A program made the translations under genes and the position numbers. The notes beneath the pieces were generated by a model. That model saw only the letters and a program-made list of their open reading frames with translations, did no database searches and was not told the DNA's origin. 34,785 bases of DNA, from the UHGV virus genome UHGV-1780165. The stretch is one strand, 5' to 3'. Of the stretch, positions 20,423 to 20,439 are shown one piece after another; the first letter of the stretch is position 1; each line of letters opens with the position of its first letter. The stretch comes from a virus.

Positions 20423-20439
20423 AACAAGTGACTAGTGTT
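20423..20439 (+). promoter_or_regulatory. candidate late-promoter element AACAAGTGACTAGTGTT
   Basis: In the 75-bp divergent darB/prt intergenic region, ~50 bp upstream of prt. Confidence 0.4.

Follow-up and report, generated by a model that had tools for sequence, protein, structure and literature searches.

A recurring motif of a P1-like plasmid prophage and the -22 box of Lpa-activated late promoters

The divergent darB/prt region of virus genome UHGV-1780165 contains, at 20423-20439, a short motif that was reported to recur at four other positions of the 34,785-nt stretch of DNA analysed here as a whole (the window). This raises the questions of whether the recurrence reflects a regulatory element, to which protein such an element would respond, and which of the two divergent genes the focal copy would serve. 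The original prediction read the motif as an Lpa-dependent late-promoter element with the consensus ACAAGTGACTT, and all five sequences were found where they had been listed: TTGACATGTGACTT at 3937-3950, TGACAAGTGACTTCAGTCA at 10941-10959, AACAAGTGACTAGTGTT at 20423-20439, AGCTAACAAGTGAT at 24170..24157 on the minus strand, and CGACAGTGACTTC at 26..14 on the minus strand. The analysis supports, with a probability of roughly 0.95, the identification of the recurring motif as the ‘-22 box’ of the Lpa-activated late promoters of phage P1, an element that has already been described.

The window aligns to the genome of phage P1 (AF234172) with ~98% identity over the aligned parts, as follows:

Window 111-930: P1 86014-86833
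Window 1003-8268: P1 87536-94800
Window 8269-11613: P1 1-3347
Window 12925-24916: P1 9750-21740
Window 25574-26352: P1 21747-22531
Window 26384-33966: P1 24246-31836

The restart of the P1 numbering at window 8269 places lox at ~8268/8269, and loxP occupies 8248-8268. The 2-kb region around the focal site is 98-99% identical to phage P1 and P1-like phages, and the darB/prt region of the window is also present in 521 plasmid records. The window starts within an IS1 copy (4-110, 98% identical to P1's own IS1), which joins P1-like sequence at the equivalent of P1 86014, upstream of upfM, a place where P1 is without IS1. By its alignment to P1 in blocks, the element is a P1-like (Punavirus) plasmid prophage. 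Compared with P1, it has the IS1 at its left end, lacks lxr (P1 86834-87535, absent at window 931-1002), and carries a 1.3-kb segment (11614-12924) in place of the type III restriction-modification genes res/mod (EcoP1; P1 3348-9749), within which a 346-aa DUF2971 protein is encoded (11832..12872, minus strand). The IS1 and isaB of P1 (22532-24245) are absent at window 26353-26383. The element also differs from P1 in an extra Tad2-like ORF and in its invertase region. The former is a 272-aa ORF (24745-25563, plus strand), which opens with ~170 nt matching the start of P1 isaA and encodes, at the C-terminus, a Pfam domain of the Tad2-like type (Thoeris anti-defence 2; E 4e-18); the ORF at 25570-26352 matches the remainder of IsaA, and by this comparison P1 seems to be without ~650 bp at isaA relative to the window element. 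The latter lies past lydC, where 33967-34785 has no match in P1. The resolvase/invertase gene in this segment (34098..34679; PF00239, E 2e-51) is encoded on the minus strand, in contrast to P1 cin, a plus-strand gene.

In the P1 record, eleven features carry the label ‘late promoter’ (LPmat, LPpro, LPlyz, LPdar, LPs, LPsit, LP23, LP26, LPpmgL, LPhot and LPpac). All of them combine a ‘-22 region’ of 9 bp with a -10 signal, and they read (ac)AAGTGACTT-N4-TAnnnT with a spacer of 4 bp (9 bp in LPhot). Published promoter positions were taken from the GenBank feature tables (AF234172 / NC_005856; P7 AF503408). Six of the eleven fall within the part of P1 covered by the window, and are given here together with the activator gene:

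618..641, plus strand: LPhot (former LPr91); box AAGTTACTT 618-626, 9-bp spacer, -10 AATAAT 636-641; hot start codon 664; P1 86521-86544, annotated ‘late promoter LPhot’
3458..3910, plus strand: lpa (gene 10), late promoter activator; 150-aa ORF directly upstream of LPpac
3942..3960, plus strand: LPpac; box ATGTGACTT 3942-3950, spacer TCGT, -10 TACCCT 3955-3960; pacA GTG 3997; P1 90475-90493, annotated ‘late promoter LPpac’
10945..10963, plus strand: LPmat (former LP2); box AAGTGACTT 10945-10953, spacer CAGT, -10 CAGAAT 10958-10963; mat ATG 10983; P1 2678-2696, annotated ‘late promoter LPmat’
20426..20444, plus strand: LPpro (focal site); box AAGTGACTA 20426-20434, spacer GTGT, -10 TAAATT 20439-20444; prt TTG 20487; P1 17251-17269, annotated ‘late promoter LPpro’
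24145..24163, minus strand: LPlyz; box AAGTGATTT 24163..24155, spacer GCAT, -10 TATCCT 24150..24145; lyz ATG 24057; P1 20969-20987 (minus), annotated ‘late promoter LPlyz’
33353..33371, minus strand: LPdar; box AAGTTACTT 33371..33363, spacer TGCA, -10 TACCAT 33358..33353; lydA GTG 33324; P1 31212-31230 (minus), annotated ‘late promoter LPdar’

In local alignment, all six promoters are 100% identical to P1 over the box, spacer and -10, with substitutions in the nearby flanks. They lie upstream of late genes and point toward them, the genes or operons behind them being hot, pacAB, mat, prt-pro, lyz, and lydA through the dar genes. Their positions relative to these genes are the same as in the P1 and P7 records, with no difference in the promoters, and the same activator gene lpa adjoins LPpac in P1 and in the window element. 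Four of the five sites of the original prediction thus coincide with sequences annotated in P1 as late promoters, in agreement with the function proposed for them, while LPhot and LPdar had been missed, and were both found by searching for ACAAGTGACTT with <=2 mismatches and by position weight matrix (PWM) scans. Further records contain corresponding annotations: the P7 record likewise annotates LPpro, AF125376 annotates a ‘late promoter sequence of lysA’ (the counterpart of LPlyz), and in M95666 the box of LPr91 (LPhot) is marked as a potential binding site for gp10, with a mapped LPr91 start at nt 629 (~window 649), 27 nt downstream of the box centre.

The -22 box is a 9-bp imperfect inverted repeat, AAGT-N-ACTT, mostly with AC in front, and the consensus ACAAGTGACTT corresponds to the annotated box AAGTGACTT plus these two upstream bases. 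In a PWM of the P1 sites, the AC positions carry 1.23 and 0.91 bits, about as informative as the box columns, so that the 11-mer describes the conserved element reasonably well; with the AC included, this element is not fully symmetric. At the five sites with a 4-bp spacer, 3 or 4 of the 4 arm pairs are self-complementary (the scoring assumed this spacer, and LPhot was left out). A -35-like hexamer at a spacing of 15-19 bp is missing from five of the six sites, where the best match to TTGACA is <=3/6 (LPpac, LPpro, LPlyz and LPdar) or 4/6 (LPhot). The exception is LPmat, which has its -10 in common with the separately annotated, predicted sigma-70 promoter Pmat (-35 TTGACA 19 bp upstream). A scan for a rightward sigma-70 promoter upstream of prt found none.

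The focal promoter LPpro is oriented toward prt, and its box (20426-20434) lies close to the darB ATG (20411, minus strand). Bidirectional use of the box, also giving Lpa-dependent late transcription of darB from a leaderless or otherwise unusual start, would be in keeping with its near-palindromic sequence, the reverse reading of which, ACTAGTCACTT, scores 13.1 in the box model versus 14.6 for LPdar and LPhot, and with the P1 record, in which a single box is common to the divergent promoters LP26 and LPpmgL. DarB is also annotated as a defence-against-restriction protein, and is presumably a virion protein for which late synthesis is needed. However, both -10 candidates in the leftward direction, AGGATT at spacer 4 and TACCAA at spacer 9, are poor, and overlap the darB Shine-Dalgarno sequence AAGGAT, directly after which comes the ATG, so that a leftward transcript would begin at or inside the darB start codon. 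The leftward hexamer of Cronobacter phage JK004 (70-78% identity to the window where aligned), AGGATC, is even worse, and for darB the P1 record gives only a separate predicted sigma-70 promoter, PdarB, further to the right (-10 TAGAAT, minus strand, 20472..20467), the -10 of which is conserved in distant relatives. Leftward use of the box was rejected because of the lack of a usable -10 and the overlap with the ribosome-binding site and ATG of darB, and bidirectional use is regarded as very improbable. The placement of the focal site in a divergent darB/prt region therefore needs to be narrowed: LPpro serves prt/pro only, and the darB side has no usable -10.

In principle, a short word balanced in A/T could recur by chance and have no regulatory role, a concern that finds some basis in the counts for the shorter or looser forms of the motif, none of which is significant. 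The exact 8-mer AGTGACTT has 2 matches in the window versus 0.61 expected (>=2 in 17/100 shuffles), ACAAGTGACTT with <=2 mismatches has 10 versus 8.6 expected, and AARTKACTW has 4 versus 1.95 expected. By contrast, ACAAGTGACTT with <=1 mismatch has 4 matches versus 0.57 expected, a number reached in 0/100 shuffles, and these are exactly the four good sites, LPpac, LPmat, LPpro and LPlyz. The box followed by N4 and YANNNT, a pattern composed after the sites were seen, has 5 matches in the window versus 0.12 expected. The short core alone thus occurs at chance level, the outcome that the original prediction had named as grounds against its reading, whereas the full element is above chance.

The fifth site of the original prediction is a chance match. 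The AGTGACTT at 15..22 on the minus strand was rejected as a late promoter, as it lies inside the 3' end of the IS1 copy. The hexamer at +4 spacing is CCCAGC, leaving it with no -10, the bases upstream of the core are GAC versus ACA in the consensus, and scans of the window do not place it among the top PWM matches.

For an independent measure of the remaining sites, a spacer-masked PWM was constructed that drew solely on the five late promoters located in those parts of P1 that the window does not cover (an earlier PWM with the spacer columns scored was noisy). The two best matches of this matrix in the window are LPpro (22.8) and LPmat (21.8), the random maximum being 13.8 +/- 1.8; the top eight also include LPdar, LPlyz and LPpac, whose scores of 12.2-14.9 are within the range of the random maxima. 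When all eleven P1 sites enter the model and the spacer is allowed to vary, scores of 18.9-24.0 are obtained for the six window sites and 13.5 for the next match, and this model yielded no further convincing candidate in the window, the non-P1 stretches included.

Conservation was examined in more distant elements. In JK004, the best matches of the P1-derived PWM are all intergenic and co-oriented with a start codon <=150 nt downstream (12/12), a condition that only 2.75% of random placements in the JK004 genome share. Several of these matches precede long ORFs that appear, by size and gene order only, to be counterparts of prt, pacA, lyz, lydA, gene 23, gene 26, R and pmgC. In JK004 and the Salmonella plasmid pCVMN1543, which are ~68-70% identical over the LPpro region, the LPpro block CACAAGTGACcAGTGTTAaATT is nearly invariant, while the surrounding intergenic sequence diverges. 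The excess of the full motif and of the box-plus-(-10) pattern over chance, the orientation of the six sites toward the late genes downstream of them, their annotation as promoters in P1 and P7, and their conserved positions in a 70-78% identical relative leave the chance explanation with a negligible probability; it is refuted for the six sites and holds only for 15-22 (minus).

A second conserved block of the same intergenic region, AATTATTCTAATTAAGG at 20462-20481, is also shared with JK004 and pCVMN1543 (68-70% identical), and covers both the predicted PdarB -10 (minus strand) and the prt ribosome-binding site.

Several other candidates were considered in the window and rejected. These include 25195-25215 (plus strand), inside the 272-aa ORF, and 33041-33061 (minus strand), inside lydA, with a poor box and a score below the random maximum. 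The candidate at 8248-8268 was set aside as the loxP site. The box-like near-palindrome ACAAGTCATTCGT (ACGAATGACTTGT on the other strand) at 3343-3355, at the end of pdcB and ~35-40 bp upstream of the lpa promoter region, was rejected as being without a -10. Outside the window, P1 contains an unannotated late-promoter-like sequence upstream of ppfA (63962-63982, minus strand; ACAAAGGACTT-catt-GATAAT), which may be a twelfth late promoter, and JK004 has a match upstream of gene_25 (23653-23673, minus strand) at a position comparable to this ppfA site. The best unannotated PWM match in P1 (18.2) is ACAAGTGACTG-gtga-TAACCT at 76780-76800 (minus strand), inside gene 7 near its 5' end.

The notion that the box is an operator for another regulator (the C1 repressor or a host factor) instead of an Lpa-responsive element draws on nothing more specific than the C1 operators or sigma-70 promoters near several late promoters (Omat and Pmat by LPmat, and Ossb by LPlyz), and retains next to no probability, given that the C1 operators have annotations of their own elsewhere, each 17 bp long, none of which coincides with a box (an example of the C1-operator type being ATTGCCCTAATGTATTT at 20341-20357, apart from the focal box), that the fixed 4-bp distance from box to -10 and the missing -35 are promoter architecture, and that the literature attributes the inverted repeat to Lpa (PMC10695390). 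The sequence at 20341-20357 lies inside darB, and is annotated in P7 as ‘hypothetical C1-controlled operator Op(pro)’, the P1 record being without an annotation there.

With the motif read as the Lpa-responsive -22 box, the literature provides the link to the activator. P1 late promoters are described as starting ~22 nt past the box centre, late in infection and in dependence on Lpa and SspA (PMC10695390, and PMC1891329 where it cites Hansen et al. 2003). In the account that PMC1891329 gives of Hansen et al. 2003, Lpa acts together with the RNA-polymerase-associated SspA, and SspA itself does not bind late-promoter DNA. Lpa is termed a ‘sequence-specific DNA binding protein’ in PMC1891329, unlike in PMC8198154, where it is an ‘RNA polymerase binding factor’; late genes such as lyz are described as coming after lpa expression (PMC8198154, PMC8201110). 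That late transcription of the window element would require Lpa and SspA, and that Lpa would contact the box directly, are accordingly claims that we take from the literature or infer.

The presence of lpa in the window is clear from its product, which is identical to P1 Lpa at 148/150 residues (99%) and matches the Pfam family PF25716 BPP1_LPA (E 1.3e-56) and PHROG 1704 (Lpa-like activator). The family is narrow, with members in P1-like elements only and an identity of at least 61% among the full-length members aligned. An AlphaFold2 model of Lpa has a confident core (residues ~17-95, pLDDT ~90) consisting of three helices and a beta hairpin (helix-helix-helix-hairpin). The top Foldseek matches in the PDB are all winged-helix DNA-binding regulators (Fur/PerR, MarR, PadR and MepR), aligned over ~70 residues at ~3 A with E-values that are all >=0.02. 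The model is consistent with DNA binding, and weakly suggestive of a winged-helix fold. Searching the PDB with the Lpa sequence yielded no solved structure, either for Lpa or for a relative in sequence.

Late promoters of a comparable design are known from other phages. Mu C, P2 Ogr / P4 Delta and staphylococcal RinA are phage-encoded positive factors that act through a short dyad-like element at late promoters with a weak or absent -35; they differ from Lpa in the proteins, the motifs and their positions relative to the start, and to our knowledge none of these systems depends on SspA. RinA is described in PMC3152322. The PigR / MglA-SspA system of Francisella likewise has an activator working through an RNA-polymerase-associated SspA-family protein, and P1 Lpa-SspA has been cited as a precedent for the PigR / MglA-SspA model (PMC1891329). 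Its DNA element and activator are unrelated to those of P1, and it controls cellular virulence genes, in contrast to the phage late genes of P1.

In the proposed sequence of events, the lifting of C1 repression would allow transcription of lpa (3458-3910) from its C1-controlled early promoter. Lpa, together with host SspA, would then enable the sigma-70 holoenzyme to start at late promoters without a -35, and activation of these promoters would switch on the packaging, head, lysis and anti-restriction genes late in infection.

The original prediction recognised the motif correctly, but the element was known and annotated before; this is nothing new, and of little importance beyond correct annotation. 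A reading of the sequence alone recovered a real regulatory motif, at the cost of one false positive, in IS1, and two misses. For the prophage in the window, the result means that intact late-gene control is kept, with lpa and six unchanged late promoters in a 35-kb stretch, and this is consistent with a prophage that is still able to run its lytic programme.
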